From NCBI GenBank assembly GCA_964399735.1, contig CAYNSO010000003.1, forward strand, positions 51,970-115,969: 64,000 bases of DNA, given 5' to 3'. Origin of the DNA: an uncultured Cytophagia bacterium (GTDB lineage: Bacteria > Zhuqueibacterota > Zhuqueibacteria > Residuimicrobiales > Krinioviventaceae). The notes under the pieces were generated by a model, which had not been told where the DNA came from, searched no databases, and worked only from the letters and a program-made list of their open reading frames with translations. A program made the translations under genes and the position numbers. Every line of letters starts with the position of its first letter. The stretch's first letter is position 1. Shown here piece after piece: positions 8,186-61,661 of the stretch.

Positions 8186-9628
8186 TCAATCTTCAACAAC
8201 ATGAGCGGCGAAATCCTCGCGGTATTTTTTCCACAATGCCGAATTCCAGCTCAGGTCGGAGTCCAGACATTCATTCGCACGCAAAGCCATTTCCATAGTA
8301 TGATGGGTATTGTCGTGAGCAAATAAACCCTGCCTGCCAAGCGAAACCATACCGGAAAACTGAAGGATATAATTGTCGAGCGCCTCTAAATGGTCGGCAA
8401 AATTCTGGTTATAAATGGGATAAGCAAAAGCCAGGCGCTTTGTGTATGCCTTGCGTACCGGACAATTCACTGTCAATTCCATCTGCTGGAGTTCATTTAA
8501 TACTCGCTCCGTTATTGCTTCGTCGCTTGAATTCCATATTTCATCATCGGTGTTACATGGAATTTCTGAACACAATCCGGTTAATCCACGAGGTTGTTCA
8601 TTGCTACTGTAATTTTTGGTTTCCGATATTCTTGAAATAATAAAATGGTCATCGGGCACATAATGGGCATCAAAACTAGTAAACTGATCAGTCTCCAGCA
8701 CCAGGTAATGAAGGATCATGCTGCGGTATTGTAATTTTTTTCCTGCTTCCTGAATATGCTGCGGGGGCGCCGGATTGAGCAAACGCGCCAGCACGGTTAG
8801 CGGAATAGTTGAAAAAACAAAATTACAGCGGCAGTCAATAACCTCGGTTGAATTTTCAGAATTGATTTTTAGCCGCACATTGTCCGGCCGGCCCTGCCTG
8901 AAGCTGATTTGTTCAGCCGTTGAGGAATAATAGATTTTCCCTCCCAGCCGCTCTACCTCGCGGGCAAGAACAACGCTGATCTGCCCGAAACCCTGCCGCG
9001 GATAGAAAAATCGACCGGCGTTTTCCTTTTTAATTCCCGGCAACAGCGACAACACTTTTTTAATAATTTTGCCAAAACTGTTGGCCGCTACCCGACGCTG
9101 CGCCTGAATGATGGAAATTTCCTGCGGCGGCAGTCCCCATAGTTTTTTGGCATAGGGAAAATAAAAATTTTTACAAATGGTTTTTCCCAGTCCTTGCAAA
9201 AGAGCATCGGCAAAAGAGTTTTGCGGCGTGTTTTTTTTACGAAACGGTTTAAGCAGCAAATCGCCGGTAAAACCAATCACAAAAGAAAACGGCAAATGCA
9301 GAACAAGATCAACCGGGTTTAACGGAAACTTGACAAAACGATTTAATAAACGGATTCGACCATTGCGGGGTCGGTTGAGTAGATCGTCACCCAGTAACGC
9401 CTGTAACTCGTGTAAAATTTCAGGCGCAGTAGCCGGGTGCAAACGATGACTGCCAAAGTCAAAATATAATCCTTCATCATTAAAACTGGCGGCAATACCA
9501 CCGGGATATGGCTTTTGTTCGACAAGAATTACATTCCAGTCCGGTTGTTTACGGTGTAAAAGTTGTAATGCCAGCATTAAACCGGCAGGGCCTGCTCCTA
9601 ATATGATAATATTCTTTTTTTCTTCCAT
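8186..9628 (-). CDS. FAD/NAD(P)-binding oxidoreductase (amine-oxidase/protoporphyrinogen-oxidase-like fold)
   Basis: 480 aa. N-terminal dinucleotide-binding motif IIILGAGPAGLMLALQL...VEQKPYPGG. Confidence 0.65.
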   Translation of the reverse strand: MEEKKNIIILGAGPAGLMLALQLLHRKQPDWNVILVEQKPYPGGIAASFNDEGLYFDFGSHRLHPATAPEILHELQALLGDDLLNRPRNGRIRLLNRFVKFPLNPVDLVLHLPFSFVIGFTGDLLLKPFRKKNTPQNSFADALLQGLGKTICKNFYFPYAKKLWGLPPQEISIIQAQRRVAANSFGKIIKKVLSLLPGIKKENAGRFFYPRQGFGQISVVLAREVERLGGKIYYSSTAEQISFRQGRPDNVRLKINSENSTEVIDCRCNFVFSTIPLTVLARLLNPAPPQHIQEAGKKLQYRSMILHYLVLETDQFTSFDAHYVPDDHFIISRISETKNYSSNEQPRGLTGLCSEIPCNTDDEIWNSSDEAITERVLNELQQMELTVNCPVRKAYTKRLAFAYPIYNQNFADHLEALDNYILQFSGMVSLGRQGLFAHDNTHHTMEMALRANECLDSDLSWNSALWKKYREDFAAHVVED

Positions 9629-9630
9629 TC

Positions 9631-10665
9631 TTATTTTACCGCCATGTCAATTTCATTATCTTTTATTTCTTTAATAACAGTAAGAGTGGATTTATTGCCA
9701 GGCGAACCCAGAATGAAAAAGACCGCTCCTGCCAGCGCGGAAATCCACAGAAAAACCAGTTGAATGATACCAAATACTACGGCATGTTCTGTGGCAACAT
9801 TGAACCAGGAAAAAAACACCACATACCCCGCTTCACGAATGCCATACCCGCCGATCGAAGGCAGCAGTTCAGCCACAAAGATCATGGGAATGACTATGGG
9901 GAAACTATACCAGGGCGCATTAAAGCCCAAAATCGCTTTGGCTATCAAATACCCTGTAAAAATAAAAATTACCTGGTTCAAAAACGAATAGACGCTGACC
10001 ATAAAAAAATCTTTGGGATATTTGCGGCTTTCCTGGAAAACCTGCATAAGATCTGTAATACTGTTCCAGAATTTCTGAAACGGCAGCTTTATGGCTATTT
10101 TTTGGTAAAGTTTAAAAAATTGTGGAGAAATAATAATAATTCCCAATATCACCAGCAAGATGGAAAGAACAATAACCGATGGCAGAGCATCCTGCAGCAT
10201 TGGAATGCTGGATGAGGCAATAATACATGCCGACAGGGCAATAAAAACAGTAACAAACATGCCGGAAAGCCGTTCAACCAGAATCGTACCCATAATACCA
10301 CCTAGCGAATACTTGTGGTTCCTGGCAATCACAATAGCACGAATTGCATCACCGCCGCGGCCGGTAGGTAAAAACGTGTTGAAAAAACCGCCGATCATAT
10401 AACCGTAAAAAGATTCACCAAAATTGAGAGCATAGCCGCTGATTTTACCAACAACCACCCAACGTAAAGCACACGGAATAAGACGTAAAAGATAAACTAA
10501 AAAAGCAATAATCAACAACAAAAAATTGATTTGGCTAAATTTATCTAGTACATCGTTCCACTTGACAGTAGAAGCAAACCAGCCGATAGCGCCTAACGAA
10601 AAAAATATTTTTATGAATAACCAAAAGATATTCGATCTGGATTTGCCGGGTATATTAATTGACAT
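9631..10665 (-). CDS. Flippase-like membrane protein (MprF flippase-domain / LPG_synthase_TM / UPF0104 family)
   Basis: 344 aa, about 8 TM helices. N-terminal basic stretch, then FLPTGRGGDAIRAIVIARNHKYS, which matches the G-x-D-x-x-R signature of the family. Confidence 0.6.
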   Translation of the reverse strand: MSINIPGKSRSNIFWLFIKIFFSLGAIGWFASTVKWNDVLDKFSQINFLLLIIAFLVYLLRLIPCALRWVVVGKISGYALNFGESFYGYMIGGFFNTFLPTGRGGDAIRAIVIARNHKYSLGGIMGTILVERLSGMFVTVFIALSACIIASSSIPMLQDALPSVIVLSILLVILGIIIISPQFFKLYQKIAIKLPFQKFWNSITDLMQVFQESRKYPKDFFMVSVYSFLNQVIFIFTGYLIAKAILGFNAPWYSFPIVIPMIFVAELLPSIGGYGIREAGYVVFFSWFNVATEHAVVFGIIQLVFLWISALAGAVFFILGSPGNKSTLTVIKEIKDNEIDMAVK

Positions 10666-15145: not shown

Positions 15146-16765
15146 TTAATCAAACAACGGGGTCAGCATTAAATTTAACGGGGTCGCCGGTGGCGCCAGA
15201 TCCGCACTGCCGGTTGGTTTGTGTAAAACAATATACATACTGCCGGTAGTTGCTGAATTTGCGCCCAAATTAACCGTACCCTGGGCAAAATCTTTGCTAA
15301 GCATTTCAAATTCAACACCCGTATCGTCAATAACATATTTCCCGGTCGACGTCCATGAAGATAGCCACGAAGGTTTGGCAGGAATACGGGTATCGTAACC
15401 GACATATATAGTGGCATCTTGATTAATTGAATACGATAAAAACGGGCTGTCATATACTTTTTTATCGTCATTTGCCGTTTTAAGCCACACAAGCCCCCTG
15501 AATTCCGGTGGAATATAGTACAATGTATAGGTTCGGTCACTATAAAAAACAGAACCCTGCGTTAATGTCTTGTTCATTATATAGGATGAACCTGTACTAG
15601 CATTTATATTTGTAATTTCAAAGGAATCGTAATTGGTAAAATCCAGACAGGCTTCCCCTGCCGGTAAATTAATACCGGTCGCATTATATGACACCGGAAC
15701 AGCGCCTGCAGTAATTTCCTGACCCGGCTCATCACACCAGTTTTCTACGGTATTGACAAAATTCGACAACGTTTCCAGGTACTGTTCTTCCTCCGGATCA
15801 ACTCCCCAAATTGTTGCCAAACCCGCTGCACCGGCAATTAATTCCGAACGCATAAAATCCCAGTTTTTGGTTGGTTCACTATCACCATTCCACACCGCGG
15901 TATTACGGTAAACACCGTCGGTACTCCAGTAAACAAACGGAATTCCTTCTCTCTTGTATGCGTTTCCATCTTCGTCAATTACAAAATCAGCGCCTACTGC
16001 ACGAGCCTGCAGGGGATCCATGGTTTTTTCAATCGCATACAAATGCTTGATATTCGGATTAATCTGCGCGCCCTGCTGATTCATATAATCAATCGACCAT
16101 TTAAACCATTCGGCAACCTTGTAATTCCAGATAACTTTGATCTCCCACCCCGGACTATAATAAACATTAGGATATTGCCAGGTCTTTTCAATAATTTTTC
16201 GCATAATGTCCATCTGCACCTGTCTTGCCTCAACAACGGCAGGATCATTTGAAGTAACATCATAAAAGTCCATCGGGTCCTGAAGCGGGCCGGAATCATA
16301 ATTACATCGTCCGGTACAGGCGGCATTAAAAGAAAAGTTCCAGGGATAATTGATAAGCCCATAACCAAACAAAGATATACCGAAAACTACATCATTTTCA
16401 TAAGCTCTTTGAGCAATAGCCGCAATCTTGTCATAAAAAGAGTTCGGAGTGTTTTTTGTATAGGTCCAGGTACATGCGGTAAAGTTTTCAATCATAACCC
16501 AGACATGATTACCACCATAATTTTTCATTGTGTTGATAAAATTAAGATCAAAATCCATCACATGAAATTTATTATTGTTGGGTACTGAACACATTAAATA
16601 AATAGGTTCACCATTATATGACAGATAATTGGGATTTTTATCAAACACTTCCAACTGAGCTCCGGCATTATGAATAAGAGCAAGGAGAAGCAAAATTAGA
16701 ACGGTATATAATATAATATGATTTTTGTAATTACGAATGTACAGGGTATTCATTGGTTTCTCCAC
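15146..16765 (-). CDS. Secreted protein, possibly a glycoside hydrolase-like enzyme with a C-terminal beta-sandwich domain
   Basis: 539 aa. Clear N-terminal signal peptide (LYTVLILLLLALIHNAGAQ). The central region is rich in aromatic, Asn and Glu residues, compatible with a TIM-barrel glycosidase. The family was not recognised with certainty. Confidence 0.35.
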   Translation of the reverse strand: MEKPMNTLYIRNYKNHIILYTVLILLLLALIHNAGAQLEVFDKNPNYLSYNGEPIYLMCSVPNNNKFHVMDFDLNFINTMKNYGGNHVWVMIENFTACTWTYTKNTPNSFYDKIAAIAQRAYENDVVFGISLFGYGLINYPWNFSFNAACTGRCNYDSGPLQDPMDFYDVTSNDPAVVEARQVQMDIMRKIIEKTWQYPNVYYSPGWEIKVIWNYKVAEWFKWSIDYMNQQGAQINPNIKHLYAIEKTMDPLQARAVGADFVIDEDGNAYKREGIPFVYWSTDGVYRNTAVWNGDSEPTKNWDFMRSELIAGAAGLATIWGVDPEEEQYLETLSNFVNTVENWCDEPGQEITAGAVPVSYNATGINLPAGEACLDFTNYDSFEITNINASTGSSYIMNKTLTQGSVFYSDRTYTLYYIPPEFRGLVWLKTANDDKKVYDSPFLSYSINQDATIYVGYDTRIPAKPSWLSSWTSTGKYVIDDTGVEFEMLSKDFAQGTVNLGANSATTGSMYIVLHKPTGSADLAPPATPLNLMLTPLFD

Positions 16766-17055
16766 TGTTTATGGAACAAGCCGACTCTTTCACATACAGG
16801 TAAATATAGTTATTCTGAAAAATGTAAAGCAATCATTATGCCAGCACAAAAAACTTTGAGGAATAACACTTTTTCTTTTAAATTTACAACACCTTGCAAA
16901 TAATTGAAAATAATACAATTATAATGTGGTCTTACTTCCCGCAATAATCATTTTGAATAACACAATCACAAGCCGATAATTCTATCCCCTTAATGTCTCA
17001 TTTGTATTTCAATATTGTTGCTTAAACGGGGCAGTTTTTCCCCTCACGAAACAAT

Positions 17056-18114
17056 TTATCCCTGCTCTGGTGGTACAAAACTGTCTGCGGCTGCTGGCAA
17101 ATTGTAATTTTTGCCCCCTCGCATGGACAAACCATAGAGCAGGTAAAACACAAATCCGGGTATGGAAATTACAATAACCAGTAAAAAGGTAACAATGGAA
17201 AGCAGGAAAGCCGTGGAAATAGATACCCCAAGTTTACTCAAAAAGAACACAAATGCGCCTTCGCGCACGCCTATCCCGCCAATGGCCAGCGGCAGCATGG
17301 TAGCCAGGGTCACCAGAGGCACAATAACAATCCAGTATCTGACCCCGATATGAATATCAAAAGAAAGAGCGACGAAATATGAAATTGCTATACGGCTAAA
17401 CTGAAAAACAATAGAGACAAGGAATACTCTAAGAATAGCCAGCTTGTTGTTTTTGAAATCAATAATAGAATCATAAATCCTTTGCAGCAAGGTTATATAT
17501 TTTTCTGTTTTTGCCGGATTATAATGGAATTTTTTTAACAACACCTCTAACAAAATAATCAGATAGCGGGACAGGATTACGCCCCAAAATAACACAACAA
17601 TACAAACGACTATGGTGATGATAAACTGCCAGGTATTGTTTATAAAACCGGTCTTGATTGCCAACACCCCCATCAATACCACAAAAATCAGTGAAATAAT
17701 GCCCAGCAGCCGATCGACAACAACGGTTGAAATGGAATCGTGAGTGTTTTTAATATAACGCGACAAACTGTATGACCGCAACAGATCAATACCGAGGCTG
17801 GATGGCAGAAAAGTGCCGATAAAACTGCTGATATAATAAATTTTAAAAATTTCCCAAAAAGGCACCCGGATATTTTTAACCTGAAGAAGCATTCGCCATT
17901 TCACAGATTTAAGGATCAATTCGATCATGGTTGGAATGAGCGCCAGCAATATAAACTCATAGCGTAACGCACCAAGTGTAGATTTTGCAACGCTCCAGTC
18001 GATTTTATCAAGCAAATAAAGAAAAATGGCCCCGCTCAGGACCATTCTTCCCAAATACTTGAATATATTTTTATAATCCGGTTTCTTCATGCGGACAGGT
18101 TTAAAAGACTCCAA
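17056..18114 (-). CDS. Flippase-like membrane protein (MprF flippase-domain / UPF0104 family), second copy
   Basis: 352 aa, multi-TM. Signature FLPSSLGIDLLRSYSLSR (G-x-D-x-x-R). A hairpin (GGGG...CCCC, 17031-17044) followed by a weak U tract lies just downstream. Confidence 0.6.
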   Translation of the reverse strand: MESFKPVRMKKPDYKNIFKYLGRMVLSGAIFLYLLDKIDWSVAKSTLGALRYEFILLALIPTMIELILKSVKWRMLLQVKNIRVPFWEIFKIYYISSFIGTFLPSSLGIDLLRSYSLSRYIKNTHDSISTVVVDRLLGIISLIFVVLMGVLAIKTGFINNTWQFIITIVVCIVVLFWGVILSRYLIILLEVLLKKFHYNPAKTEKYITLLQRIYDSIIDFKNNKLAILRVFLVSIVFQFSRIAISYFVALSFDIHIGVRYWIVIVPLVTLATMLPLAIGGIGVREGAFVFFLSKLGVSISTAFLLSIVTFLLVIVISIPGFVFYLLYGLSMRGGKNYNLPAAADSFVPPEQG

Positions 18115-26954: not shown

Positions 26955-28412
26955 CTACTCGGCTCCATATCCTGTTATCACGACAAAAAATGTTTTCATC
27001 ATGATCCGCCAATCCAGCATTAAAGACCAGTTATCAATATATTCCAAATCCATTTTCATCCACTGATCAAAAGACAGCTTGTTCCTACCACTAACCTGCC
27101 AAATGCAGGTAATGCCAGGCTTTAAAGATAAGCGCCGGCGCTGCCAGATTTTATAATTTTCCACTTCACTGACTATTGGCGGCCGCGGCCCGACAATACT
27201 CATATCGCCTTTTAAAACATTAAATAATTGCGGTAATTCATCAATGCTGGTTTTGCGAATAAATGAACCGACTTTGGTTATGCGCGGGTCTTTTTTAATT
27301 TTAAAGACCGGTCCGTCCATTTCATTATCCTCCTGCAACTCTGCTTTCATCTCTTCGGCATTATTTACCATAGAGCGAAATTTATAAAGAATGAACTTGC
27401 GGCCCTTTAAGCCGCAACGCACCTGTTTGAACAAAATTGGCCCTTTGGAGGTAACTTTGATCGCAATCGCGGTTATCAGCATAATTGGAGAAAGCACAAT
27501 TAATGATAATGCGGATATAAGAATATCTAGTAATCGTTTGATAAAAAGCTGCCATTCGCGGGCATGAAAAGTTTTAAATTCCAGCAGCGGAAAACCGTTA
27601 AAGTCCGTTTGCCGGGTATGCGCCAAAGTTAAATTGTAAAAATCCAGCGAAAGAGCTGTAGTAATGCCCACCTCTTCACAGGCCAGAATAGCTTCTTCAA
27701 TCAAGGGCAGCCAATGCCGGGGAACAACAAAGATAACCTGGTCTATAACTATCTGGTTGATAATAAAGGGAATATCTTTGATGCGGCCCATCACCCGGTA
27801 ACCGGCAATTTTTTTGCCATACAGGGCATGGTCGTCGTCAATCAGACCGACAATTTTCAAGCCCCAGTTGCCATGGTTGTGCACAGCATCAATAAATTCC
27901 AAAGCTCTTTTGCCGGTTCCAACAATTAACAGATTCTCCTGGTTTAATCCCTTGGAATGAACATTATCCAAAATTTTTAAAAGCGCCCACTTTTCCAGCA
28001 AGATTAATAAATACGCGGTAGCAGCATAAACAACAAAGAACAAACGGCTGGTCATTTGTAGTTTAGCTAAAAAGACAAAGTTACCGGAGGCAAGCGTTGC
28101 CCATAACCCGGAAACAATAATAAGCCAGACTAATTTCCGAAAAGGTCTGGTACGGTAACCCTCATATATTCCATAAATGGAAAATATAACTACCCAAATC
28201 AGTGGAAAGCCCCCAAACAACATCCAGAAATTGCTGGCAAAATTTACAAATCCGGAAAAAGTAGCGCTGGTAGCATAGGCTTTAATATTTAACTGGGCTA
28301 CCTGGCGAATAAATTCATCAAGAAAATAGGCAATAGGAAAAACAACAAGAAGCACAAAAAAATCAATGCCTTTTAAAATATTACCTAAAAACTTTTCTCG
28401 TTCAGATACCAT
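26955..28412 (-). CDS. Polyprenyl-phosphate glycosyl-1-phosphate transferase (WbaP/WcaJ-like initiating sugar transferase)
   Basis: 485 aa. N-terminal TM helices, central Rossmann-like region, and the C-terminal bacterial sugar transferase domain with conserved PGITCIWQVSGRN and DLEYIDNWSL. Confidence 0.85.
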   Translation of the reverse strand: MVSEREKFLGNILKGIDFFVLLVVFPIAYFLDEFIRQVAQLNIKAYATSATFSGFVNFASNFWMLFGGFPLIWVVIFSIYGIYEGYRTRPFRKLVWLIIVSGLWATLASGNFVFLAKLQMTSRLFFVVYAATAYLLILLEKWALLKILDNVHSKGLNQENLLIVGTGKRALEFIDAVHNHGNWGLKIVGLIDDDHALYGKKIAGYRVMGRIKDIPFIINQIVIDQVIFVVPRHWLPLIEEAILACEEVGITTALSLDFYNLTLAHTRQTDFNGFPLLEFKTFHAREWQLFIKRLLDILISALSLIVLSPIMLITAIAIKVTSKGPILFKQVRCGLKGRKFILYKFRSMVNNAEEMKAELQEDNEMDGPVFKIKKDPRITKVGSFIRKTSIDELPQLFNVLKGDMSIVGPRPPIVSEVENYKIWQRRRLSLKPGITCIWQVSGRNKLSFDQWMKMDLEYIDNWSLMLDWRIMMKTFFVVITGYGAE

Positions 28413-28433: not shown

Positions 28434-29390
28434 TCAAACAGAATTCTTGTTATTGAACCACTGTATAAATTTATCAATACCGGCTTCAATGGCAACTTGC
28501 GGATTATAATTCAAATCCTGCTTTGCCCGGCTGATATCGGCAAATGTAATTGGCACATCACCAGGTTGATCCGGCTTCCAGTCAATAATGGCTTTTTTCC
28601 CCAAACCTTTTTGTATCAAATCAATCAGATACATTAATTCAACCGTATTCGATTCACCAAGGTTATAGATATGGTAACCGTCGCAATGCAAAATTGCTGC
28701 TTGTATCCCCTGTAATATATCATCTATAAAAGTATAGTCACGCCGGCTTTTACCGTTGCCAAAAACCGGAATGGGTTTACCATTGTCAATTAAATTGGCA
28801 AATTTATGAATAGCCATATCCGGTCTCTGCCGTGGACCATAGACAGTAAAAAAACGCAGGCAATTAACAGAAATCTTGTAAAGTTTATGATAGGTGTAAC
28901 AAACCAATTCGCCGGCTTTTTTAGTGGCAGCATAAGGCGAAATGGGGTTATCAACAGAATCACTCTCGCTGAATGGCACTTTATCATTGGCGCCATATAC
29001 GGAAGATGAAGAAGCAAACACAAACCCGGATACATCATGTTCCCTGCACATTTCCAGCAAATGCATGGTACCCTGCACGTTCACTCTTTCATACAATAAT
29101 GGTTCCTGGATTGAAGGCCTTACACCGGCGCGGGCAGCCAGGTGAACAATAACGTCGAATTTATGCGCGGAAAAAATCTTTTGCAGCAACGGCAGGTCAA
29201 GAATATCGCCTTCAATCAGTTGGTAATTTTTATGCGCCAACAGTTCTTTGATATTGTTTCTTTTTATAGCCGGATCATAATAGTTGTTAAAATTATCCAG
29301 GCACACAACATCATCCCCCTGTTTTACCAATCTTTCACTCAAATGTGAGCCAATAAAACCGGCGCCCCCGGTGACCAATAACTTCATCAT
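28434..29390 (-). CDS. NDP-sugar 4-epimerase (GalE/UDP-glucuronate-epimerase-like SDR)
   Basis: 318 aa. LVTGGAGFIGSHL; catalytic YAATK. Confidence 0.8.
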   Translation of the reverse strand: MMKLLVTGGAGFIGSHLSERLVKQGDDVVCLDNFNNYYDPAIKRNNIKELLAHKNYQLIEGDILDLPLLQKIFSAHKFDVIVHLAARAGVRPSIQEPLLYERVNVQGTMHLLEMCREHDVSGFVFASSSSVYGANDKVPFSESDSVDNPISPYAATKKAGELVCYTYHKLYKISVNCLRFFTVYGPRQRPDMAIHKFANLIDNGKPIPVFGNGKSRRDYTFIDDILQGIQAAILHCDGYHIYNLGESNTVELMYLIDLIQKGLGKKAIIDWKPDQPGDVPITFADISRAKQDLNYNPQVAIEAGIDKFIQWFNNKNSV

Positions 29391-29413: not shown

Positions 29414-31732
29414 CTAATAATGATAATAACTATATGTATTATTCAAGATGGCCGTTTCCGAACCGTTCAATATTACACCAATAAGATTTACATTTACATT
29501 GCTAAACAACTCTAATTTTTCCTGGGCAATCTTTCTATCCGTTTGCCCGGCTTTAACAACCACGGCAACGGCATCCATCTGAGTACCAATTACCACACAA
29601 TCAGTCGCCGCTTCAAGGGGGGGAGCATCGAAGAGGATAAAATCAAATTTTCGGCGCGCTTCATCAAGAAAATGACGCATTTGCTGCGAGCCCAATAATT
29701 CCGAAGGATTGGGGATCATCGATCCGCAGCTGATAATCGACAAATTGGGAATATGAGTCTGCTGTACCACACTGGACAATGTTACCCGGTTATTTAAATA
29801 ATTTGTAAAACCCGGCTCCTTTTTCATCCCAAAAGTGTTATGCAACACACCGCGGCGTAAATCGGCATCGACCAGCAGGGTATTGGTTCGCTGTTGAGCA
29901 AGAATAATAGCCAGGTTGCTGGCGGTAAACGATTTGCCCTCTTCCGGGCTGATACTGGTAAGCAGCAACGTGTGAATTCGCCCGGTATTTTTTGAAAACA
30001 TTAAATGAGTGCGCAAAGCGCGGTACGATTCCCCTATGGGTGTGGGTGAATAATCATGTGTGACCAATTGTCGGTCTATTTGCTTGGCTTTTTCAAAATC
30101 CTGATATTCTTTGATATTGCCAAATTTTACTATTGGTATTGCGCCCAAAACCGGCAAATTCAAAAGTCTTTCAACATCGTTAAATGACCGGATCTTGTTA
30201 TCAGAAATTTCCAAAAGCAGGGCAATAACAACACCTAAAATTAAACCCAAACCTCCGCCCAGTAAAACCCGCGACATTTTGCTGGGGTTAATTGGCGAAG
30301 TTGGTGTTATGGCCCGATCAAGAATAGCAATTTCATTTTCTTCAACTACATCGGCCAGTTCCATTTTTTGCATTTCCTGCAGTAACAGAAAATACTTGTC
30401 CTCGGCAATTTTCTTCTTCCGTTCCAGTTCCATAAAGCGATACTGATCCTGTGGCAGTAAATTTAGCTGTGTTTGAATACCAGATAAATCCGTGCGATAT
30501 TCCGATTCGCGTCTTGCCAGGGTATTACGAAAACTGGAAGCAAAATTGGTGATCTCTTTGTGAGTTGTGCGAATATTATTCATTACCTCCAACAATTCCG
30601 GATGATCGGGCGAGAATTGTTGATAGAGCATGTCGTATTGCTTGTTCAAAGCCTGCAATTGCTGCTTGAGGATTGCCATTTTAGTTTCATTAACAAACAT
30701 CGGGTTATTGGCAATTTCTGTAACAATAAAACTGCGGTATTGATCGGGGTCAGGCTCGGAATCGGCTTTATCCAGCCGATCCAGGTATTCGGTCAGTTGA
30801 TTCCTTTGCCGCGGTAAATCCCGAAGCGCTTTATCATAATCGGTAAGCCGATCCAGCAATCTTTTCTTTTCGCCGTCCAGACTAAGCGGATAGCGTGAAT
30901 AAAAACTACGCAGTTCAGCCTCAACAGCGTTCACTTTAACTTCTGCAGTTTTTAATTGTTTGGAAATAATATCCCTTTTTAAATCTACATCTCGGGTTTT
31001 TAAATTCATACTTTGGTCGACATATACTTCGGCAATTCGGTTCAACTTTTTCGGCAAGAGTTCAGGGTCGGTACCGTTCATTTGCAGGATCATATACGAA
31101 CCGCCGCCAAAGAAATCTACACTCAAATCTCTGGATATAGCGTCTGCGGCTTTATCAATTGATACAACTTTGAATTTGATCTCTTTGGGAAACTCGACAG
31201 CGTGGGGTTGTAGTTGGAAAGTAATGCCATTCCCGCTGCGTTCGCTGGCAACTGCGTCCCATACATTGGCGCTATCGAGCACTGTTCCACCGGTGCTATC
31301 CATAAAAACAAAATAATAATTTCCGGCTTCGTCAATTGAAACTTTGTATTTACCAATAACCGGGCTTTCGCTGGTATAATAGCTAAAAAATATTTCATCA
31401 GCGCTTTTCATTGTGGTATCCTGAAGCACAATTGCCAGCCCTAACTGGGCAGTAACCCGGTTAATAAATGTGCGGCTGCGAATTTCACCCTTGCGCTCAT
31501 TGTTCCAGAATTGGCCGGCGTCCTGATCGATCGATCTTATTTTCAAATTTACATAAGCCCGGTAAATGGGCACCTGGTTTCTGGCTTTTAAATAAAAAGG
31601 CACTGCTACCAATATCATACATACCAGTATCAGATATTTTCTTTTCCAAATGCCTTTAATATACTTTTGGAAATCAATTTGAGAAACATTTGCTGGTTCT
31701 GCAGGTATATGTAGATTGTCTAATTCTTCCAT
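29414..31732 (-). CDS. Polysaccharide co-polymerase / tyrosine autokinase (Wzc / BY-kinase-like)
   Basis: 772 aa. N-terminal TM, long coiled-coil periplasmic region, second TM, cytoplasmic P-loop ATPase (Walker A SPEEGKSFTASNLA), and a C-terminal tyrosine cluster (NNTYSYYHY). Confidence 0.8.
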   Translation of the reverse strand: MEELDNLHIPAEPANVSQIDFQKYIKGIWKRKYLILVCMILVAVPFYLKARNQVPIYRAYVNLKIRSIDQDAGQFWNNERKGEIRSRTFINRVTAQLGLAIVLQDTTMKSADEIFFSYYTSESPVIGKYKVSIDEAGNYYFVFMDSTGGTVLDSANVWDAVASERSGNGITFQLQPHAVEFPKEIKFKVVSIDKAADAISRDLSVDFFGGGSYMILQMNGTDPELLPKKLNRIAEVYVDQSMNLKTRDVDLKRDIISKQLKTAEVKVNAVEAELRSFYSRYPLSLDGEKKRLLDRLTDYDKALRDLPRQRNQLTEYLDRLDKADSEPDPDQYRSFIVTEIANNPMFVNETKMAILKQQLQALNKQYDMLYQQFSPDHPELLEVMNNIRTTHKEITNFASSFRNTLARRESEYRTDLSGIQTQLNLLPQDQYRFMELERKKKIAEDKYFLLLQEMQKMELADVVEENEIAILDRAITPTSPINPSKMSRVLLGGGLGLILGVVIALLLEISDNKIRSFNDVERLLNLPVLGAIPIVKFGNIKEYQDFEKAKQIDRQLVTHDYSPTPIGESYRALRTHLMFSKNTGRIHTLLLTSISPEEGKSFTASNLAIILAQQRTNTLLVDADLRRGVLHNTFGMKKEPGFTNYLNNRVTLSSVVQQTHIPNLSIISCGSMIPNPSELLGSQQMRHFLDEARRKFDFILFDAPPLEAATDCVVIGTQMDAVAVVVKAGQTDRKIAQEKLELFSNVNVNLIGVILNGSETAILNNTYSYYHY

Positions 31733-31749: not shown

Positions 31750-32463
31750 TTATTGTTTCAACAGTGTTAAATATAAAATGATTAACGACATTCCAAACTG
31801 GAAATATCGCATCATACTTCTAAAAGTTGGCCGATTGGCACGCGGCACCACCAGTTCATCGCCTGATACAAAACCTAATTCATAAAGTGAAGTGCCCTGC
31901 TGAATTGCCTCAATAAAATCTTTATAAATAATTTCATCTTTGCGCATAATAAACATATCATTCAAAGCCGAAAGTGCATCCAATCCACCGACCAGCCCGC
32001 CGGCCTCTCTGATCATATCCCAAAAAGACATATCCAGACTTACTCGATACATTCCAGGTTGACCAAAATCACCACGCAGCGTGATACGAATTAATGGCTT
32101 GACAATGACCATAGGTTCACGGGCATAGGGTTTAAACTGTTCTGTTAATAATAACCGGACTTCTTCTGTAGTCATTCCGGCAACATGGATACTTCCCAAA
32201 GTTAAAAGATCAACCTGCCCGAAGCCGTTGATTGTAAATGCTTTGTCATGGAAATTTGCTACAAACTTTCCTTCAACCGGTGCAAAGCCACCATCATAGA
32301 CATATAAATGAATAGCATCACCGGGACCAACAATTATTTCACCCAGCCGGTCATCCTGGGAATAAACGCTGCCAGATAATAAAAGATGCAGCAATAATAG
32401 TAATATTCCAGCAATTGACAGTTGCTTCACGATAAACCTCTTGTTTAACCTGTTCTTTTCCAA
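31750..32463 (-). CDS. Polysaccharide export protein (Wza-like, Poly_export/SLBB)
   Basis: 237 aa. Signal peptide and IIVGPGDAIHLYVYDG, resembling the PGDxLxIxV motif of Wza-family exporters. Shorter than E. coli Wza. Confidence 0.6.
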   Translation of the reverse strand: MEKNRLNKRFIVKQLSIAGILLLLLHLLLSGSVYSQDDRLGEIIVGPGDAIHLYVYDGGFAPVEGKFVANFHDKAFTINGFGQVDLLTLGSIHVAGMTTEEVRLLLTEQFKPYAREPMVIVKPLIRITLRGDFGQPGMYRVSLDMSFWDMIREAGGLVGGLDALSALNDMFIMRKDEIIYKDFIEAIQQGTSLYELGFVSGDELVVPRANRPTFRSMMRYFQFGMSLIILYLTLLKQ

Positions 32464-32478: not shown

Positions 32479-33201
32479 TTAGCGTGAACGGTAAAAGCGA
32501 TACCGCTTGGCTTTGGTTTCCATATTCATTTTCTTTAATGTTGCTCTGAGCTTGAAATAGCCGATTCTGGTAAAACCAAACCGCTGCGATTTCAACTCTT
32601 TGCGAATATTCATAACTCCCCCCATAGGATTTTCGATAACTATTTTTTTAATTTTTTCAGTAACAGGTAAATCAGCTTCTTCAACAGTCAGTTTTCGTTT
32701 GGCAAACGAGGCGGACTTGGCCGCAGCGCCTTTATCTTGACGGCGCGCTGCTATTGCGTCAATTTCGTCTTGTCCGGGCGCTAAATCGCTTTCCTGTATT
32801 TCCAATAATGATCCGTTTTGGGGGGTTGTAAATTTTAAACCACGGCAATAATCAAAATCGTCTATTGCTTCTTCCAGGGAATCATAGCTGGTAAGAATGC
32901 GGTTAAATTCAAGCATTTCAAACACTTCGTACACATCAGGGGTCATTTGGGTAATTTTTAAATCACCACCTTTTTCACGCAGACCACGAATTTCACCCAC
33001 AAAGATACCCCAGCCCGCGCTGCTGACATAATGCACGCCACCCAGATCTATGATAAACTGGTTGTTTCCCTGATTGATTTGCTCTGCAATTGTTTTTTGC
33101 AAATCAGATGAAGTTGTTGTGTCAATATAGCCGCTCACACGTAATAAAATAATATCTTTTAACGCGCCTATTTTATATATACTTTTTTCAATACCTTCCA
33201 T
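32479..33201 (-). CDS. STAS-domain (anti-sigma-factor-antagonist-like) protein with a basic C-terminal extension
   Basis: 240 aa. The N-terminal roughly 115 aa form a SpoIIAA-like STAS fold with the conserved Ser region (GGVHYVSSAGWGIF). The C-terminal roughly 120 aa are charged and Lys/Arg-rich with no recognised domain. Confidence 0.6.
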   Translation of the reverse strand: MEGIEKSIYKIGALKDIILLRVSGYIDTTTSSDLQKTIAEQINQGNNQFIIDLGGVHYVSSAGWGIFVGEIRGLREKGGDLKITQMTPDVYEVFEMLEFNRILTSYDSLEEAIDDFDYCRGLKFTTPQNGSLLEIQESDLAPGQDEIDAIAARRQDKGAAAKSASFAKRKLTVEEADLPVTEKIKKIVIENPMGGVMNIRKELKSQRFGFTRIGYFKLRATLKKMNMETKAKRYRFYRSR

Positions 33202-33262
33202 GCCCTGCCCAAGTACGAATTTATTCCATATAGATTGTACGTAATTAATTTATTAAAAAAAG

Positions 33263-33280
33263 GCAAAGTTAATGCCAACA
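33263..33280 (-). promoter_or_regulatory. Candidate sigma-54 (-24/-12) promoter upstream of the STAS-wza-wzc operon
   Basis: The minus strand reads TTGGCATTAACTTTGCC. This has correctly spaced GG (-25/-24) and GC (-13/-12) elements (TGGCAT-N5-TTGCC versus consensus TGGCAC-N5-TTGCW). It sits about 60-80 nt upstream of the STAS start codon. A sigma-54 activator is encoded at the window end. Confidence 0.35.
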
Positions 33281-33520
33281 ATAAACCTGGTAATAACTAA
33301 TTTATAATAAATATCAATCATATTTTAACTGCATTGTTTATTTTTATTACACTTAAAGAACCTGTTTTGCCGGCTGTTTTTGCCTGTTTTGCCCAAAACC
33401 AAAAAGGGCACAAAAATGCCGTTCTTTTATCTGATATTGTTATAATGCGAAACATTTGTGACTCATACCAAAACAATATCAGTATGACAATAAACTTGCA
33501 TCAAGAACGGCATGGAAATA

Positions 33521-35047
33521 CTATTTATGTTTTTTATTATTTACCAGCGATAAATACGTTTTTACATACTTTTCTGCAGCAACGGACCAGGAATAATCGG
33601 CACGCATTCCCCGCTTTATCAGTTTTTGCCAGTTCTTTTGATCGCCATAAGCAGCAACCGCGCGTTTAATGGCATCAACCAAATCTTTTTTATTATAGGG
33701 CTCAAAAGTAAAGCCATTGCCATTTTCAGGGTCCTGGTCAAAATCAATTACTGTATCTTTCAACCCCCCGGTACTGCGGACAATAGGTACAGTACCATAT
33801 TTCAAGCTGTATAACTGATTCAGACCACAAGGCTCATACCGGGATGGCATTAAAAACATATCACTGCCAGCTTCAATCAAATGCGCCAAATCATTGTCAA
33901 AACGTAAAAAGAGCGCTACATTTTTGGGATAGGTTTTACAGATTTTTTGCAAAGCCTCGTGATATGCAGGTTCGCCAAGACCCAAAATAACCAACCGCAC
34001 ATCTTGTGCAATTATATCTTTGATAGCAGCCTGGATCAAATCGAACCCCTTTTGGCCGGCTAAACGCGATACCATACCAATTAGTGGTTTATTGTCATCT
34101 GTCGGAAAATTACATTTTTCCAGCAATTCTTTTTTGTTAAGAGCTTTACCTTCCGGCTTATTACAGGAATACTTTTCAGCAATCAACGAATCGGTTTCCG
34201 GATTCCATTCCGAATAATCGGCGCCATTAAGAATACCTTCAAAATCTTGATTACGCGATTGTAAATACTCGGTCATACCCGCGCCAGTTTCTGAATTGGT
34301 GAGCACTTCATTGGCATACGCCTGGCTAACGGTTACAATCTTGTCGGCAGTTTGAATTCCGGCTTTTAAAAAGTTTATATTTTTGTGGTGCAGTAAATCA
34401 TTTACACCATCCTTATTCTTTTGTTCAATTCCCAGCAATTCAAGATTATCGTTGGAAAAATTGCCCTGATAAGCCATATTGTGAATCGATAAAACCGTTG
34501 CACAATTGGCATAAAAAGCGTCTTTATTAAATTCATGTTTCAAATACCAGGGCACAAGACCGGTTTGCCAGTCGTTGCAATGGATGATTTGTGGTTCCCA
34601 ATGCAGTAATTTTATCGTTTCCAGGGCTGCCTTGCAAAACAATCCAAATCTTTCCGCATTATCAGGCAAGTCCTTTCCGGTCTCCGAATCGACATACAAA
34701 TCGTTGCCACCAAAAAAAGGTTTGTATTCCAGAAAATAAATTTGCACTTTGGAATCGGGTATAAAAGCCGATTTGGCGCATGCGATATGATCATTTTCCC
34801 CCATTTTAATTTTAACCCTTTTTAACCGTATAACTTCACGTAACACATACTTGCGATCATTAATACATCCATATTTGGGCATTATCACTCGTATATCATG
34901 CCCCATATCATAAAGCGCTTTTGGCAGGGCGCTGGAAACATCTGCCAAACCGCCTGTCTTGGCAAAAGGAGTTACTTCGGATGATAAGAATAAAATTCGT
35001 AGCCTGGTTTTCATAGCATTACCTTTTTTCTTTTGACGATGGGGCAA
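33521..35047 (-). CDS. glgA: Glycogen synthase (GT5, ADP-glucose type)
   Basis: 508 aa. Canonical start MKTRLRILFLSSEVTPFAKTGGLADVSSALPKAL and conserved KTGGL motif. Confidence 0.85.
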   Translation of the reverse strand: MPHRQKKKGNAMKTRLRILFLSSEVTPFAKTGGLADVSSALPKALYDMGHDIRVIMPKYGCINDRKYVLREVIRLKRVKIKMGENDHIACAKSAFIPDSKVQIYFLEYKPFFGGNDLYVDSETGKDLPDNAERFGLFCKAALETIKLLHWEPQIIHCNDWQTGLVPWYLKHEFNKDAFYANCATVLSIHNMAYQGNFSNDNLELLGIEQKNKDGVNDLLHHKNINFLKAGIQTADKIVTVSQAYANEVLTNSETGAGMTEYLQSRNQDFEGILNGADYSEWNPETDSLIAEKYSCNKPEGKALNKKELLEKCNFPTDDNKPLIGMVSRLAGQKGFDLIQAAIKDIIAQDVRLVILGLGEPAYHEALQKICKTYPKNVALFLRFDNDLAHLIEAGSDMFLMPSRYEPCGLNQLYSLKYGTVPIVRSTGGLKDTVIDFDQDPENGNGFTFEPYNKKDLVDAIKRAVAAYGDQKNWQKLIKRGMRADYSWSVAAEKYVKTYLSLVNNKKHK

Positions 35048-43240: not shown

Positions 43241-43445
43241 CCATCCTGTTTAAAAAATAAATTAAACAAACATGGATTCAAATGCAAGACCAGAATGCAA
43301 CCAGTGATATAAATACAGGAAAACAGCAAAATTAAAGCACCCATTATTTAAAAAGAGTTGACAAATAATTAAAAGTTTATTACTTTTTAACTTACATACA
43401 TCATTTTTTTTAAATAGCAGAAAAAAATTGGAGGCAGATTTGACA

Positions 43446-43730
43446 ATGGAAGCATTAGGTCTGGTAGAAACTCGTGGATTTATCCCCGCCATCGAAGCGG
43501 CTGATGCCATGGTAAAAGCAGCAAATGTTCAACTGGTTGGCACCGAACGGGTAGGCAGTGGTTTGGTTACAGTTATCGTTCGTGGTGATGTTGGCGCTGT
43601 CAAAGCGGCCACCGATGCCGGCGCTGCTGCCGCTGAAAAAGTTGGCGAACTGGTTTCAGTTCACGTTATTCCGCGTCCTCATTCCGAGGTTGAACAAATT
43701 TTACCCAAAGTAAAAACATCCGTAAAATAG
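43446..43730 (+). CDS. Bacterial microcompartment shell protein, BMC-H (PduA/EutM/CcmK-like, Pfam00936)
   Basis: 94 aa [82 protein letters not shown], near-identical in pattern to PduA/EutM. GGAGG lies 11 nt upstream of the ATG at 43446. The ORF track uses an upstream TTG at 43428. Confidence 0.85.
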
Positions 43731-54015: not shown

Positions 54016-55053
54016 ATGAAAGGATATACTTTGAAAAAGACAACGTTATTGTTGATAGTAATGTATGTTATTATCCCCTTGCGTTCCTTTTCCCAGGTAT
54101 CATATTACGGTGGTAAAGGGCTATTGAGAATAATTGAAGCAGAGACAATTCATCCCGGAATTCTGGCTGTCAATGCTGTATATAACGGCTATGCCGCAGG
54201 AGACAACTATAATTTCAGTGAAGACCATTCCTTATATCTGGGGGCGACGGTTGGTATATCGGAACATTTTGAAATATTTTCACAATTAACGCCCTACCAG
54301 GATGATCAAAAACACACCTGGGGGCCAATTGGCGATTCCAAATTGTGTGTTAAATATCACATTCCCAATAACAGCACAATGGTAAAATTTGGAATTGTTG
54401 GTTATCTGAGTTTTCCAACTGCGGTAAACCACAATGTACCATTTGAATCGTACAGCAACGATGCAATGGGCTGGGCATTAATGAGTTTAACATCGTTCGA
54501 TTTGAAAAATGTCTCCTCCACCCTGCCCCTGAAATTGACTCTGAATTTGGGATATCGGGATCATAATTGGGGCGATCAATTCTTTTCTGCTCGCAAGGAT
54601 CAGTTAATAGGCGGGTTGGGATTTAAATTTCCAGTTCGTTCCAATCTGCTTTATTCTGAAATAACCGGTGAATATTTTATCAATAATACCGAAAATGTTA
54701 CCCCCAGTCAAAATTTTATTCGCTTTACCCAGGGTTATCGTTTTGTTGGCCCCTGGCATCTTATTTGTGACCTTGCCGCAGATATTGAACTGGGTGGTTA
54801 CAGACCAGATAAAAAAGATCTATACAAAGATTCCTACATTAAAGATTATGCCGACTGGAAAATTATATTCGGAGTTTCTTATCGTACCACACTGTTTGCA
54901 GGTAAAACCAAAGCAGAAAAACTTGAAGAAGAAAAAGCTCGTTTGGAACAACAGGAACTCAATAAAATTCAGGACAAACGAGAAAAAGTAATAAAAGATT
55001 TGGAAGAATTAAGAAAGCAACTGGAACAGGAAAAAAAGCCAACTACGGATTAA
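54016..55053 (+). CDS. Secreted/outer-membrane protein with C-terminal coiled coil, hypothetical
   Basis: 345 aa. Signal peptide (LLLIVMYVIIPLRSFSQ), beta-rich body, and a C-terminal charged coiled coil (KAEKLEEEKARLEQQELNKIQDKREKVIKDLEELRKQLEQEKK). Confidence 0.4.
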   Translation: MKGYTLKKTTLLLIVMYVIIPLRSFSQVSYYGGKGLLRIIEAETIHPGILAVNAVYNGYAAGDNYNFSEDHSLYLGATVGISEHFEIFSQLTPYQDDQKHTWGPIGDSKLCVKYHIPNNSTMVKFGIVGYLSFPTAVNHNVPFESYSNDAMGWALMSLTSFDLKNVSSTLPLKLTLNLGYRDHNWGDQFFSARKDQLIGGLGFKFPVRSNLLYSEITGEYFINNTENVTPSQNFIRFTQGYRFVGPWHLICDLAADIELGGYRPDKKDLYKDSYIKDYADWKIIFGVSYRTTLFAGKTKAEKLEEEKARLEQQELNKIQDKREKVIKDLEELRKQLEQEKKPTTD

Positions 55054-55147: not shown

Positions 55148-56590
55148 TTGATAATTATTATAAAGCTGTACAGACCAAGAATGAATTTTTTGATGCAAAA
55201 TCTTGCAATACCTGAAAAAAAGCAATTTAACATCAGGGCGATTTTTATCGTCCTCTTGTTTTTTATATTACAATCATATTCTTTAGCTATACCCCCGGTT
55301 GACTCACCGACTAAACAGCTAAGCCCACGGCAGTATGATGAACTTGAAAAAGCCTCGGCAAAACTACATTCAGAAGCTCAGCAATTGTTTGATAATGGTA
55401 ATTACTGGGAAAGCGCCCGCAATCTGATCATTTTACTCGATTTTAATAATAGCTATTCAAAAATTGATGAAGTGATTTTTACTCTGGGCGACTGTTTGTA
55501 TGAAATTGGTCTTAATGAGGGCTCCAAGAAAATATTCAAATACCTGGTAAAAAAATTCATATCCAGCGATCAACTTCCCCGCGCTTTGCTCGGGCTGCAA
55601 CGGATAGAATATGATAGTGAAAACCTGATAAAATGTATTGATTTTTATAAAGTGATCTCCAGAGGCAGTCCTCCCCAGGAGATTCTGGATTGTTCACGTT
55701 ATTATGCAGGTCTCAGTTTTTATAAACTGAATGATTACACAAATGCAATTGATATTTTATCACAAATTAATCGCTCGAATCCATATTATGCCTTTGGGCA
55801 GTACACATGCGGCTTGTCGTACCTGCGTTTGAAAAAAGTTCGCAAAGCCGTCGATACCATGAACGGGATATTGCGTATTGCTATTGTTAATGATGAAATG
55901 CGCAGCATTGTGGACGAGACTCACTTGACTTTGGGTTATATTTATTACGAACTCGGCTATTATGAACATTCCTGGCAGCAATTTAATTCTGTTTCGTCAA
56001 ATCATACCAATTATCGCGATGCCTTGTTATCCGCCGGGTGGGCTGCAACCAAACTGCAAGATTATGAGCGGGCTATCAATCCATTAACACAATTGGTTAG
56101 TTTTAAAGAAGAAGATGAAAAAACCCAGGAAGGGTTCTTTTTACTTGGTCAATGTTATTTAAAATTAGGGCTGTATGACGATGCCCTTAAAATATACGAG
56201 TTTCTGGTTAACATACTACCCAAAAGAGAACTGGTGCCCGTCATAATTCAGCAAGTTGGTGGTGGTATTGCCCAGGAAGAGAAAAAAATTGAAAAAATAA
56301 AAATGGATTTACTGGTTCTGGAAACAAAATTATTAAACCTGATTCAGCTAAACCCCGATATGGACACCCCGGCATACCTGCAGAAAGAAAAATCAGAGAT
56401 TACGACAACACGGAACAATTTGTTAACTCAAATTCAATCAGAACGTAAATCGTTCGAACAGTTCTCCGGTCAAATTAAAGAGATGAAAGAAAAAATTCAA
56501 ATCAGAAAAGAACGGCAGGACTGGAGAGCTTTTGCTGAATATGGTAAATCACGAGCTATGTTTTTAAAAAGAACTGAAACACAAAATTAA
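55148..56590 (+). CDS. TPR-repeat protein with C-terminal coiled coil
   Basis: 480 aa. N-terminal signal/TM, multiple TPR-like repeats (YYAGLSFYKLNDYTNAIDIL, GYIYYELGYYEHSWQQF, LGQCYLKLGLYDDALKIY). The start is possibly Met at 55181. Confidence 0.65.
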   Translation: MIIIIKLYRPRMNFLMQNLAIPEKKQFNIRAIFIVLLFFILQSYSLAIPPVDSPTKQLSPRQYDELEKASAKLHSEAQQLFDNGNYWESARNLIILLDFNNSYSKIDEVIFTLGDCLYEIGLNEGSKKIFKYLVKKFISSDQLPRALLGLQRIEYDSENLIKCIDFYKVISRGSPPQEILDCSRYYAGLSFYKLNDYTNAIDILSQINRSNPYYAFGQYTCGLSYLRLKKVRKAVDTMNGILRIAIVNDEMRSIVDETHLTLGYIYYELGYYEHSWQQFNSVSSNHTNYRDALLSAGWAATKLQDYERAINPLTQLVSFKEEDEKTQEGFFLLGQCYLKLGLYDDALKIYEFLVNILPKRELVPVIIQQVGGGIAQEEKKIEKIKMDLLVLETKLLNLIQLNPDMDTPAYLQKEKSEITTTRNNLLTQIQSERKSFEQFSGQIKEMKEKIQIRKERQDWRAFAEYGKSRAMFLKRTETQN

Positions 56591-59526: not shown

Positions 59527-59537
59527 GGTAATACAAA

Positions 59538-59921
59538 ATGGTAATTAAAAATAACAAATTTGCAATTCTTTATGCTGTTATCATTTTACTTTTTATTAAC
59601 AGCTCTCTTTACTCGCAAGAATCGGGTAATAATACATTATCTGAAAATTCGACAATAAATAGCCCGGTTATTTCAAATGATTCTTTGAACATTGATAATG
59701 AAAATATCAAAATGTTCATTGATAAAATCGAAGTAAATGTTCAACTGGAAAAACCACAAGCATTATTTATCTTGCCGGGTACAACACCGGATATTGATGA
59801 CATTCAAATTGAGCATTCATTTTTCAATGAAATTTTTCGGCCTGTCGAAAAACGGGGAAGAATCCAGACAAGTCTGACAACAGAGCCTGCCAAAGATCGT
59901 AAAGATTACATTCCCTGGTAA
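59538..59921 (+). CDS. Small secreted hypothetical protein
   Basis: 127 aa. Signal peptide (FAILYAVIILLFINSSLYSQ), Ser/Asn-rich region. No recognised domain. Confidence 0.3.
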   Translation: MVIKNNKFAILYAVIILLFINSSLYSQESGNNTLSENSTINSPVISNDSLNIDNENIKMFIDKIEVNVQLEKPQALFILPGTTPDIDDIQIEHSFFNEIFRPVEKRGRIQTSLTTEPAKDRKDYIPW

Positions 59922-59991
59922 GCCCGAATTTTAAAATTTTCTTTTGTGTAATAATCTTAACTAGTCATAACAACTGATTAAGGAGGTATCC

Positions 59992-60609: not shown

Positions 60610-60612
60610 TGA

Positions 60613-61080: not shown

Positions 61081-61095
61081 GAAAGATTATTAATT

Positions 61096-61611: not shown

Positions 61612-61661
61612 TACGATAAATAACGATGACAGTTTTTAAAAAAATATAGAAATTCATATTA

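Follow-up and report, generated by a model that had tools for sequence, protein, structure and literature searches.

The 64,000-nucleotide (64-kb) stretch of DNA analyzed here (the window) comes from contig CAYNSO010000003.1 of an uncultured Cytophagia bacterium (GTDB Zhuqueibacterota) and carries a polysaccharide locus of about 33 kb, whose export operon opens with a gene for a 240-residue protein. We refer to this protein as STAS-HTH, as it consists of an N-terminal STAS domain, a variable linker, and a basic, helix-turn-helix (HTH)-like C-terminal domain. In our reading, which we consider probable, the operon is driven by sigma-54 together with an enhancer-binding protein (EBP), and its first product is a regulator of the export locus that joins a STAS switch to the HTH-like domain. 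The regulatory logic has precedents in the syp cluster of Vibrionaceae and in the repressor CapS; what is new is the conserved fusion with an undescribed C-terminal domain family.

A preliminary description of this DNA, made from its letters, had seen TGGCAT-N5-TTGCC about 60 nt upstream of the STAS-HTH gene on the minus strand, and we locate this sequence, TGGCATTAACTTTGC(C), at 33277..33262. It matches the sigma-54 -24/-12 consensus exactly, is non-coding, and has the orientation of the gene; its distance from the ATG downstream of it is 76 nt at the 5′ T and 61 nt at the 3′ end. Transcription is predicted to start near position 33251. Within the window by itself the motif does not stand out, as TGGCAY-N5-TTGC occurs twice against 0.64 occurrences expected and two or more occurrences were seen in 11 of 100 shuffles, a count that is not significant alone. 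The significance of this promoter derives from its conservation across species and not from the count in the window. For the promoter statistics, we used 80 species-level genome loci comprising 885 kb, or 1.77 Mb when both strands are counted. Here, 49 of the 58 exact matches to TGGCAY-N5-TTGC lie no more than 350 nt upstream of an STAS-HTH orthologue and on the same strand, which is a 336-fold enrichment and leaves nine matches elsewhere in the 1.77 Mb. The strict motif is present in 49 of the 80 loci and the form TGGCAY-N5-TTGY in 67 (376-fold enrichment), always in the orientation of the gene and 52-220 nt upstream of its start codon. Further, the 319-nt intergenic region between glgA and the STAS-HTH gene gave no sigma-70-like promoter on the strand that carries the gene. 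A third, relaxed match to the motif, at 54754..54768(+), was dismissed because it lies inside a coding region. These comparisons strongly support a sigma-54 promoter upstream of the STAS-HTH gene, from which we infer that the operon depends on sigma-54 in vivo.

Five or six loci have no strict site upstream of the gene and show their best match in the STAS-HTH-wza gap instead, an exact one in L057, L059, and L068; the site thus tracks the operon. The gaps that hold the best match are enlarged (4157..5146 in L057, 6001..6990 in L059, and 6001..7156 in L068), and the same is seen in L027, L043, and L077; some of these relatives keep a weaker upstream site too. The arrangement suggests that some lineages transcribe the export genes apart from the regulator gene.

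The window contains a second exact consensus match in the same polysaccharide locus, ahead of an unannotated open reading frame (ORF) of 539 codons with which the next block of the locus starts. The sequence TGGCATARTGATTGC is found at the same place in all three syntenic relatives (L081-L083), where the flanking DNA has diverged and the 539-residue protein is 57-74% identical. Neither Pfam nor NCBIfam matches this protein, and it has few homologues (19 with E values of 1e-20 or lower, mostly from KSB1). It is followed by genes for a polysaccharide deacetylase, a hexapeptide acyltransferase, a FemAB-like GNAT protein, and a GT2 glycosyltransferase, and it is well supported by the sequence comparison that the second promoter serves this later block of the 33-kb locus. 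With this second conserved site, the locus has at least two conserved promoters of the sigma-54 type. Thus, the earlier proposal of a sigma-54 promoter for the export module is strongly supported, both by conservation in about 80 species and by a second conserved site in the same locus. One further homologue of the 539-residue protein, P0281, was not used as evidence, being in an unrelated, phage-like context next to thyX, with the motif absent. We note that four genomes share a block, GCAACA-N4-5-TGAAAT-N5-7-GGGACAT, about 150-210 nt upstream of the second promoter (in the window at about 16990..17030(-)).

A search for words shared upstream of the promoters led us to the inverted repeat TGT-N11-ACA, represented in the window by TGTTTCGCATTATAACA, 177 nt upstream of the -24 element; the stretch 33457..33475 may hold another, degenerate copy. 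The more specific form TGTTTC[GA]-N7-ACA stands upstream of the gene in 55 of the 80 loci, at a density of 2.08 per kb compared with 0.002 per kb elsewhere, i.e. about 1000-fold enriched. The element is often tandem with a spacing of 18-20 nt, starts 93-226 nt upstream of the -24 element in most loci, and occurs together with the promoter in 67 of 81 loci. At NtrC/NifA-type promoters, an inverted repeat about 100-200 bp upstream is the classical activator site of an EBP, and the NifA upstream activator sequence is TGT-N10-ACA. The present control region shares with such promoters the -24 GG and -12 GC as well as the inverted repeat, often tandem, about 100-200 bp upstream, whereas its half-sites are separated by 11 nucleotides and those of NifA by 10. 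By this analogy, TGT-N11-ACA is probably an EBP activator site.

In the window, the element is enclosed by a 94-nt nested hairpin that lies right after the glgA stop codon (33418..33511(-)), with the outer stem GCCGTTCTT/AAGAACGGC and the inner stem CTGATATTGTT/AACAATATCAG. As RNA, the hairpin has a folding energy of -34.3 kcal/mol (z = -4.3); a T-rich stretch lies behind it, and a small hairpin with a T-run is found at 33407..33420. Both arms are kept in L001-L004, a similar enclosing hairpin occurs in L024, and other loci have a short canonical terminator ahead of the element instead. The hairpin may be the glgA terminator, overlapping the enhancer-like site. When the intergenic region and the hairpin were searched against Rfam, no family was found and all scores were far below the gathering scores. 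The idea of a small RNA was abandoned, as the comparison across loci shows that the inner part of the hairpin is the conserved TGT-N11-ACA element, and we therefore regard the structure as a terminator-like hairpin that has the enhancer-like site within it. Between the element and the promoter, GGCAAAAC(AG) occurs as three direct repeats (33362..33395(-)), whose conservation does not extend even to the closest relative, L001.

The preliminary description had also pointed to an EBP gene at the end of the window. The 3′ part of such a gene is indeed present there, cut by the window end, and encodes an intact AAA+ domain (Sigma54_activat at 3e-51 and AAA_lid_14) and an HTH_8 domain; its translation shows ELFGHEKGAYTGA with an intact GAYTGA loop. 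An EBP with this loop argues for the presence of rpoN in the genome and for the use of sigma-54 by the organism. Nothing links this EBP to the STAS-HTH promoter, and a tblastn search found no EBP genes within 6 kb of the orthologous loci.

We next consider the protein itself. The view that its N-terminal part is a SpoIIAA-like STAS domain with a conserved phosphorylatable serine region holds. Pfam STAS (PF01740) matches residues 15-112 at E 2.4e-19 (69.5 bits compared with a cut-off of 22.6), and NCBIfam TIGR00377 (anti-sigma factor antagonist) scores 59.3 bits, above its cut-off of 53.45; the SpoIIAA equivalog model TIGR02886 is missed (51.9 versus 114.75). A phmmer search of PDB sequences matched SpoIIAA at 3e-9 and placed S61 opposite Ser58, the residue that is phosphorylated in SpoIIAA. 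In fold searches, which were run against PDB structures with Foldseek, the closest solved structures were SpoIIAA, RsbV, and RsfB, with template modeling scores (TMt) of 0.84-0.92. An alignment of 33 homologues that are 49-90% identical shows S60, S61, A62, G63, and W64 of the VSSAGWG motif to be invariant, so that the serine is conserved in the orthologues, and also shows the start of the protein to be conserved as MEGIE or MDGIE. The isoelectric point (pI) of the domain is 4.4. By analogy with SpoIIAA, Ser61 would be the phosphorylated residue.

The remainder of the protein had been described as a basic extension of roughly 120 residues and of unknown fold. The length is correct, but the extension is not a single domain: it comprises a disordered linker and a conserved HTH-like domain of about 65 residues. 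The linker has no conserved columns in the alignment of the 33 homologues and differs in length between them, and AlphaFold2 gives a predicted local distance difference test (pLDDT) value below 50 at residues 123-171. The C-terminal block (pI 10.5), when predicted alone, folds into a four-helix domain with a pLDDT of 94.6 and a predicted template modeling score (pTM) of 0.80. Its consensus is LP..EKIKK...ENP..G...IK..L.S.RFG......FK....LK.....TK.KRYRFYRSR; the invariant residues include P179, E182, K183, P192, L203, F208, K232, R233, R235, R238, S239, and R240, and the motif ...KR.R..RSR at the end is invariant. The domain has neither a Pfam family nor a sequence match in the PDB. Foldseek returned weak matches (E >1) to FapR, FtsK-gamma, RosR, and the Pax paired domain, which are all of the same kind. 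Further, HTH_21 was matched below its cut-off in 9 of 26 homologues (best E 8.7e-4; the domain in the window has no match), and the second of two copies of the domain in P0169 scored 29.7 bits against a cut-off of 31.5 for HTH_Tnp_Tc3_2. These sub-cut-off scores suggest a remote similarity to transposase-type HTH domains, not membership in those families. Taken with the predicted fold, the weak matches lead us to regard the C-terminal domain as an undescribed HTH-like family that probably binds nucleic acid; the ligand would most plausibly be DNA. When 1.84 billion representatives were searched with a profile of the domain, 203 clusters were matched; in these, the domain is nearly always at the C terminus of the protein. 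Eight of ten longer representatives carry a STAS domain, and the other two are proteins of repeated HTH units. In P0186 (483 residues), P0229 (566 residues), and P0236 (544 residues), a low-complexity N-terminal extension of 260-400 residues precedes the STAS domain. A possible role of the C-terminal tail as a tyrosine-kinase substrate was dropped, since no tyrosine position is invariant.

The fusion and its place in the genome are conserved together. The homologue search gave more than 1500 matches at E up to 0.001, and all of the 120 homologues listed align over the full length of the query; those with a named source come from metagenome-assembled genomes of candidate division KSB1, Calditrichota, and Candidatus Zhuqueibacterota. 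As the preliminary description had it, the STAS-HTH gene heads the wza-wzc operon: the wza start follows its stop codon by 15 nt, and wzc, which scores 176.6 bits with NCBIfam TIGR01007 (cut-off 108), follows 17 nt beyond wza. Further down, to about position 700, the same strand encodes glycosyltransferases, acyltransferases, and other sugar-modifying enzymes (the coordinates of the main features are given in Table 1). Of the 80 loci, all those whose contig extends far enough show the genes in the order TPR protein, glgA, STAS-HTH, wza, wzc, epimerase. The wza gene follows the STAS-HTH gene in all loci long enough to tell (76 of 80), the epimerase gene is syntenic at 61-88% identity in all loci of sufficient length (65 of 80), and glgA lies upstream in most. 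Distant relatives show synteny from mreCD, PBP2, rodA, and lgt to the priming transferase and a GT4 glycosyltransferase, and in locus L087 the gene that follows that for the divergent, N-terminally extended P0186 encodes a Poly_export protein. Because the linkage is kept in distant variants too, the tie to the export machinery is common to the entire STAS-HTH family. The STAS-HTH gene, wza, wzc, the epimerase gene, and the downstream biosynthesis genes probably form a single operon behind the sigma-54 (-24/-12) promoter. Coexpression of STAS-HTH with the Wza/Wzc machinery, and a functional tie between the two, are well supported.

Table 1. Features of the STAS-HTH operon, its control region, and related parts of the window (positions are those of the window)
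Feature	Position	Strand	Basis
STAS-linker-HTH-like protein gene, 240 aa, first gene of the operon	32479..33201	-	ORF
STAS domain, residues 1-120, SpoIIAA/RsbV type	32842..33201	-	Pfam, NCBIfam, PDB phmmer, Foldseek
Variable linker, residues 121-171, predicted disordered	32689..32841	-	Alignment and pLDDT
Basic four-helix HTH-like domain, residues 172-240, conserved	32482..32688	-	Alignment and AlphaFold2
Sigma-54 type -24/-12 promoter TGGCATTAACTTTGC(C), TGGCAT-TAACT-TTGCC	33262..33277	-	Exact consensus match, cross-species conservation
Enhancer-like element TGTTTCGCATTATAACA (TGT-N11-ACA)	33438..33454	-	Word search, conservation
glgA, upstream of the STAS-HTH gene	33521..35047		
wza-like polysaccharide export protein gene	31750..32463	-	Pfam Poly_export
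wzc-like chain-length regulator and tyrosine autokinase gene	29414..31732	-	Pfam GNVR, AAA_31, Wzz (P-loop kinase domain)
NAD-dependent sugar epimerase/dehydratase gene, next conserved operon member	28434..29390	-	Pfam
Priming sugar transferase gene, after the epimerase gene	26955..28412	-	
Second sigma-54 type promoter, same polysaccharide locus	16829..16843	-	Exact consensus match
Unannotated 539-aa ORF behind the second promoter	15146..16765	-	
Sigma-54 EBP gene, 3′ part, cut by the window end	63119..64000	-	Pfam

We propose the following sequence of events. An EBP would probably activate the promoter from the TGT-N11-ACA site about 100-200 bp upstream, and the first product made, together with the export machinery, would be a regulator built of a STAS switch, a flexible linker, and the basic HTH-like domain. 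The state of the STAS domain, set by phosphorylation through an unlinked kinase or by the binding of a partner, would control the action of the C-terminal domain, which most probably binds DNA at the locus and so exerts transcriptional feedback or gating in the manner of CapS. By analogy, the STAS serine would be a phospho-switch run by unlinked enzymes, and overall the protein would act much like SypA in the Vibrio syp system, as a checkpoint on polysaccharide production.

The syp/eps cluster of Vibrionaceae is the closest precedent for the layout. There, the EBP SypG turns on the sigma-54 promoters; SypE both adds a phosphoryl group to the conserved Ser56 of the STAS protein SypA, the product of the first gene, and removes it; and the genes after sypA include those for the Wza-like SypC and the Wzc-like SypD (PMC4517449, PMC5801674, PMC12994190). 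Further, sigma-54 control of exopolysaccharide and other functions of the cell exterior is recognized across phyla (PMC3162934). The statement in the preliminary description that such a layout is not standard for Wza/Wzc loci thus needs to be qualified, since the layout has a precedent. As compared through these papers, the two systems share more than one sigma-54 promoter, a STAS protein with a conserved serine as the first product, Wza/Wzc-type genes, and glycosyltransferases. They differ in that SypA is a single STAS domain, to which STAS-HTH adds the linker and the HTH-like domain, and in that the syp locus encodes SypG, the sensor kinase SypF, and SypE, none of which is linked to the STAS-HTH gene; no response regulator, kinase, or EBP of the SypE, SypF, or SypG kind was found in the 33-kb locus. 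Their hosts belong to unrelated phyla.

The C-terminal domain calls for a second comparison. CapS is a transcriptional repressor that joins a STAS domain to a winged HTH and whose gene adjoins the promoter of its target operon; its STAS domain mediates dimerization, and the dimer comes apart and releases the DNA once CapK, the kinase encoded alongside, has phosphorylated the STAS serine (PMC13373217). The HTH of CapS is of the winged MarR/ArsR type and without a long linker, whereas STAS-HTH has a long linker and a four-helix domain that weakly resembles HTH domains of the transposase type. The gene for CapS adjoins that for CapK, and its product represses immune operons at sigma-70-type promoters, whereas the STAS-HTH gene has glgA and wza/wzc as its neighbors, no adjacent CapK (HTH-STAS-GHKL) or immune operon, and a sigma-54 promoter for polysaccharide export. 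We detected no sequence relationship to CapS beyond the STAS domain. By analogy, the fused HTH-like domain would point at least as much to a DNA-binding switch like CapS as to partner switching. With the classical partner-switching proteins SpoIIAA and RsbV, STAS-HTH shares the STAS fold, the position of the serine, and family-level hidden Markov model matches. Those proteins, however, are single-domain, are encoded next to a kinase/anti-sigma factor and a phosphatase, and act on a sigma factor of the sigma-70 family, and no such partners were found for STAS-HTH in the window. Finally, the All4160/HenR module of Anabaena comprises a phosphorylation-controlled STAS protein with unlinked kinases and concerns the heterocyst polysaccharide layer (bioRxiv 10.64898/2026.04.08.717354); it belongs to another organism and locus, and neither a sigma-54 promoter nor an HTH fusion is described there. 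The STAS-HTH family combines traits of the syp, CapS, and Anabaena systems and is a member of none.

Several observations weigh against a sigma-54/EBP-driven operon with a STAS-switch and HTH-like regulator as its first product. First, about one-quarter of the loci have TTGT or TTGA, not the canonical TTGC, at -12. Second, the element upstream of the second promoter is unlike the TGT-N11-ACA of the first and, being different, may be the site of a different activator. Third, no kinase, phosphatase, or anti-sigma partner was found in the window or within 10 kb of the gene in the distant relatives L085 and L086. The preliminary description had noticed that none is adjacent; in fact, neither HATPase_c (RsbW/SpoIIAB-like) nor PP2C/SpoIIE proteins are encoded by any ORF of the window, small ORFs in gaps included. 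As no such partner is linked, control by phosphorylation is drawn here only as an analogy. Fourth, SypA is reported to act after transcription and without a DNA-binding domain (PMC4517449).

The last of these points bears on the main rival to DNA binding, which is that the C-terminal domain is a docking module. STAS-HTH would then be a post-transcriptional factor like SypA, with the STAS domain acting by protein contacts on the export or assembly machinery and the C-terminal domain docking to Wzc, Wza, the membrane, or RNA. We consider this doubtful. It is favored by the linkage to wza in all loci examined, distant variants included, by the action of SypA downstream of syp transcription, by the weakness of the HTH fold matches, and by the proposal that the Anabaena STAS protein directly regulates a polysaccharide biosynthetic enzyme (bioRxiv 10.64898/2026.04.08.717354). 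Set against these are the predicted fold and the weak sequence matches of the C-terminal domain, all of the HTH kind. Were the domain to bind no DNA, STAS-HTH would still be a well-defined regulator tightly coupled to Wza.

A different objection concerns the STAS domain, which could be a ligand or nucleotide sensor or a constitutive dimerization module, with a structural role for the conserved serine. This would fit with the lack of a kinase or phosphatase in the window and near the gene in the relatives, and some STAS domains do bind ligands or have other roles (PMC8256260). However, neither S60 nor S61 varies, the SpoIIAA phosphoserine falls exactly on S61 in the alignment, the closest structures are kinase-regulated antagonists, and unlinked kinases are known for other STAS proteins (bioRxiv 10.64898/2026.04.08.717354), and we regard such a role as unlikely. 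Least of all do we expect TGGCAY-N5-TTGC to be the operator of another DNA-binding protein, possibly STAS-HTH itself, in an operon under the housekeeping sigma factor: although the motif count within the window is not above chance, one clade has TTGT or TTGA at -12, and the spacer sequence is conserved within clades, such an operator would have to reproduce the exact sigma-54 consensus including its fixed 5-nt spacing, in constant orientation and 52-220 nt from the start codon, and would have to recur independently before another operon of the locus, with an enhancer-like inverted repeat at the typical distance, no sigma-70-like promoter on the gene's strand of the intergenic region, and a sigma-54 EBP gene in the window.

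The reading that we prefer, a sigma-54/EBP-driven operon whose first product is a STAS-switch and HTH-like regulator, can be taken one step further. STAS-HTH might bind within the sigma-54 control region that governs its own operon, perhaps at the tandem TGT-N11-ACA sites, and act there as a coactivator or anti-activator of the EBP, so that the state of the STAS serine would gate synthesis of the export machinery. We think it improbable that this is how the protein works. If it were true, it would directly link signaling of the partner-switch type to sigma-54 enhancer function and suggest a mechanism for SypA-type STAS regulators.

Wza/Wzc-type export loci are central to the formation of biofilms and capsules, and the mode of control by SypA is still unsolved. 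The conserved fusion is a handle on how SypA-type proteins work and hints that nucleic acid may be the target of STAS regulators at polysaccharide loci. The little-studied phyla KSB1, Calditrichota, and Zhuqueibacterota share one invariant design of a sigma-54 promoter, an enhancer-like site, and a first gene for a STAS-HTH fusion. For uncultured phyla, this also provides predicted sigma-54 promoters and enhancer-like sites as a clean set. The C-terminal domain, as a new family with at least 203 clusters, is worth naming.

Some other features of the window deserve mention. The polysaccharide locus contains two paralogues with the LPG_synthase_TM (lysyl-phosphatidylglycerol synthase membrane) domain, at 9631..10665(-) and 17056..18114(-), as well as an acyl-CoA-ligase-like gene (6823..8151) and a gene for an amine-oxidase-like flavoprotein (8186..9628); together, these genes hint at an unusual lipid- or acyl-modified polymer. 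Outside the locus, a lone BMC-domain (bacterial microcompartment shell) gene of 100 codons (43428..43730(+); Pfam E 7.5e-31) is flanked by a metallophosphoesterase gene and ispE-like and prs genes, with no further microcompartment genes in the 64-kb window. Ahead of the EBP gene, at 55148..63056(+), lies a block with genes for two large TPR proteins (480 and 978 residues), exbB, two copies of exbD, and a gene for a 464-residue protein with weak TonB_C and FHA-like matches, which resembles an energy-transduction cluster of the TonB/Tol type.

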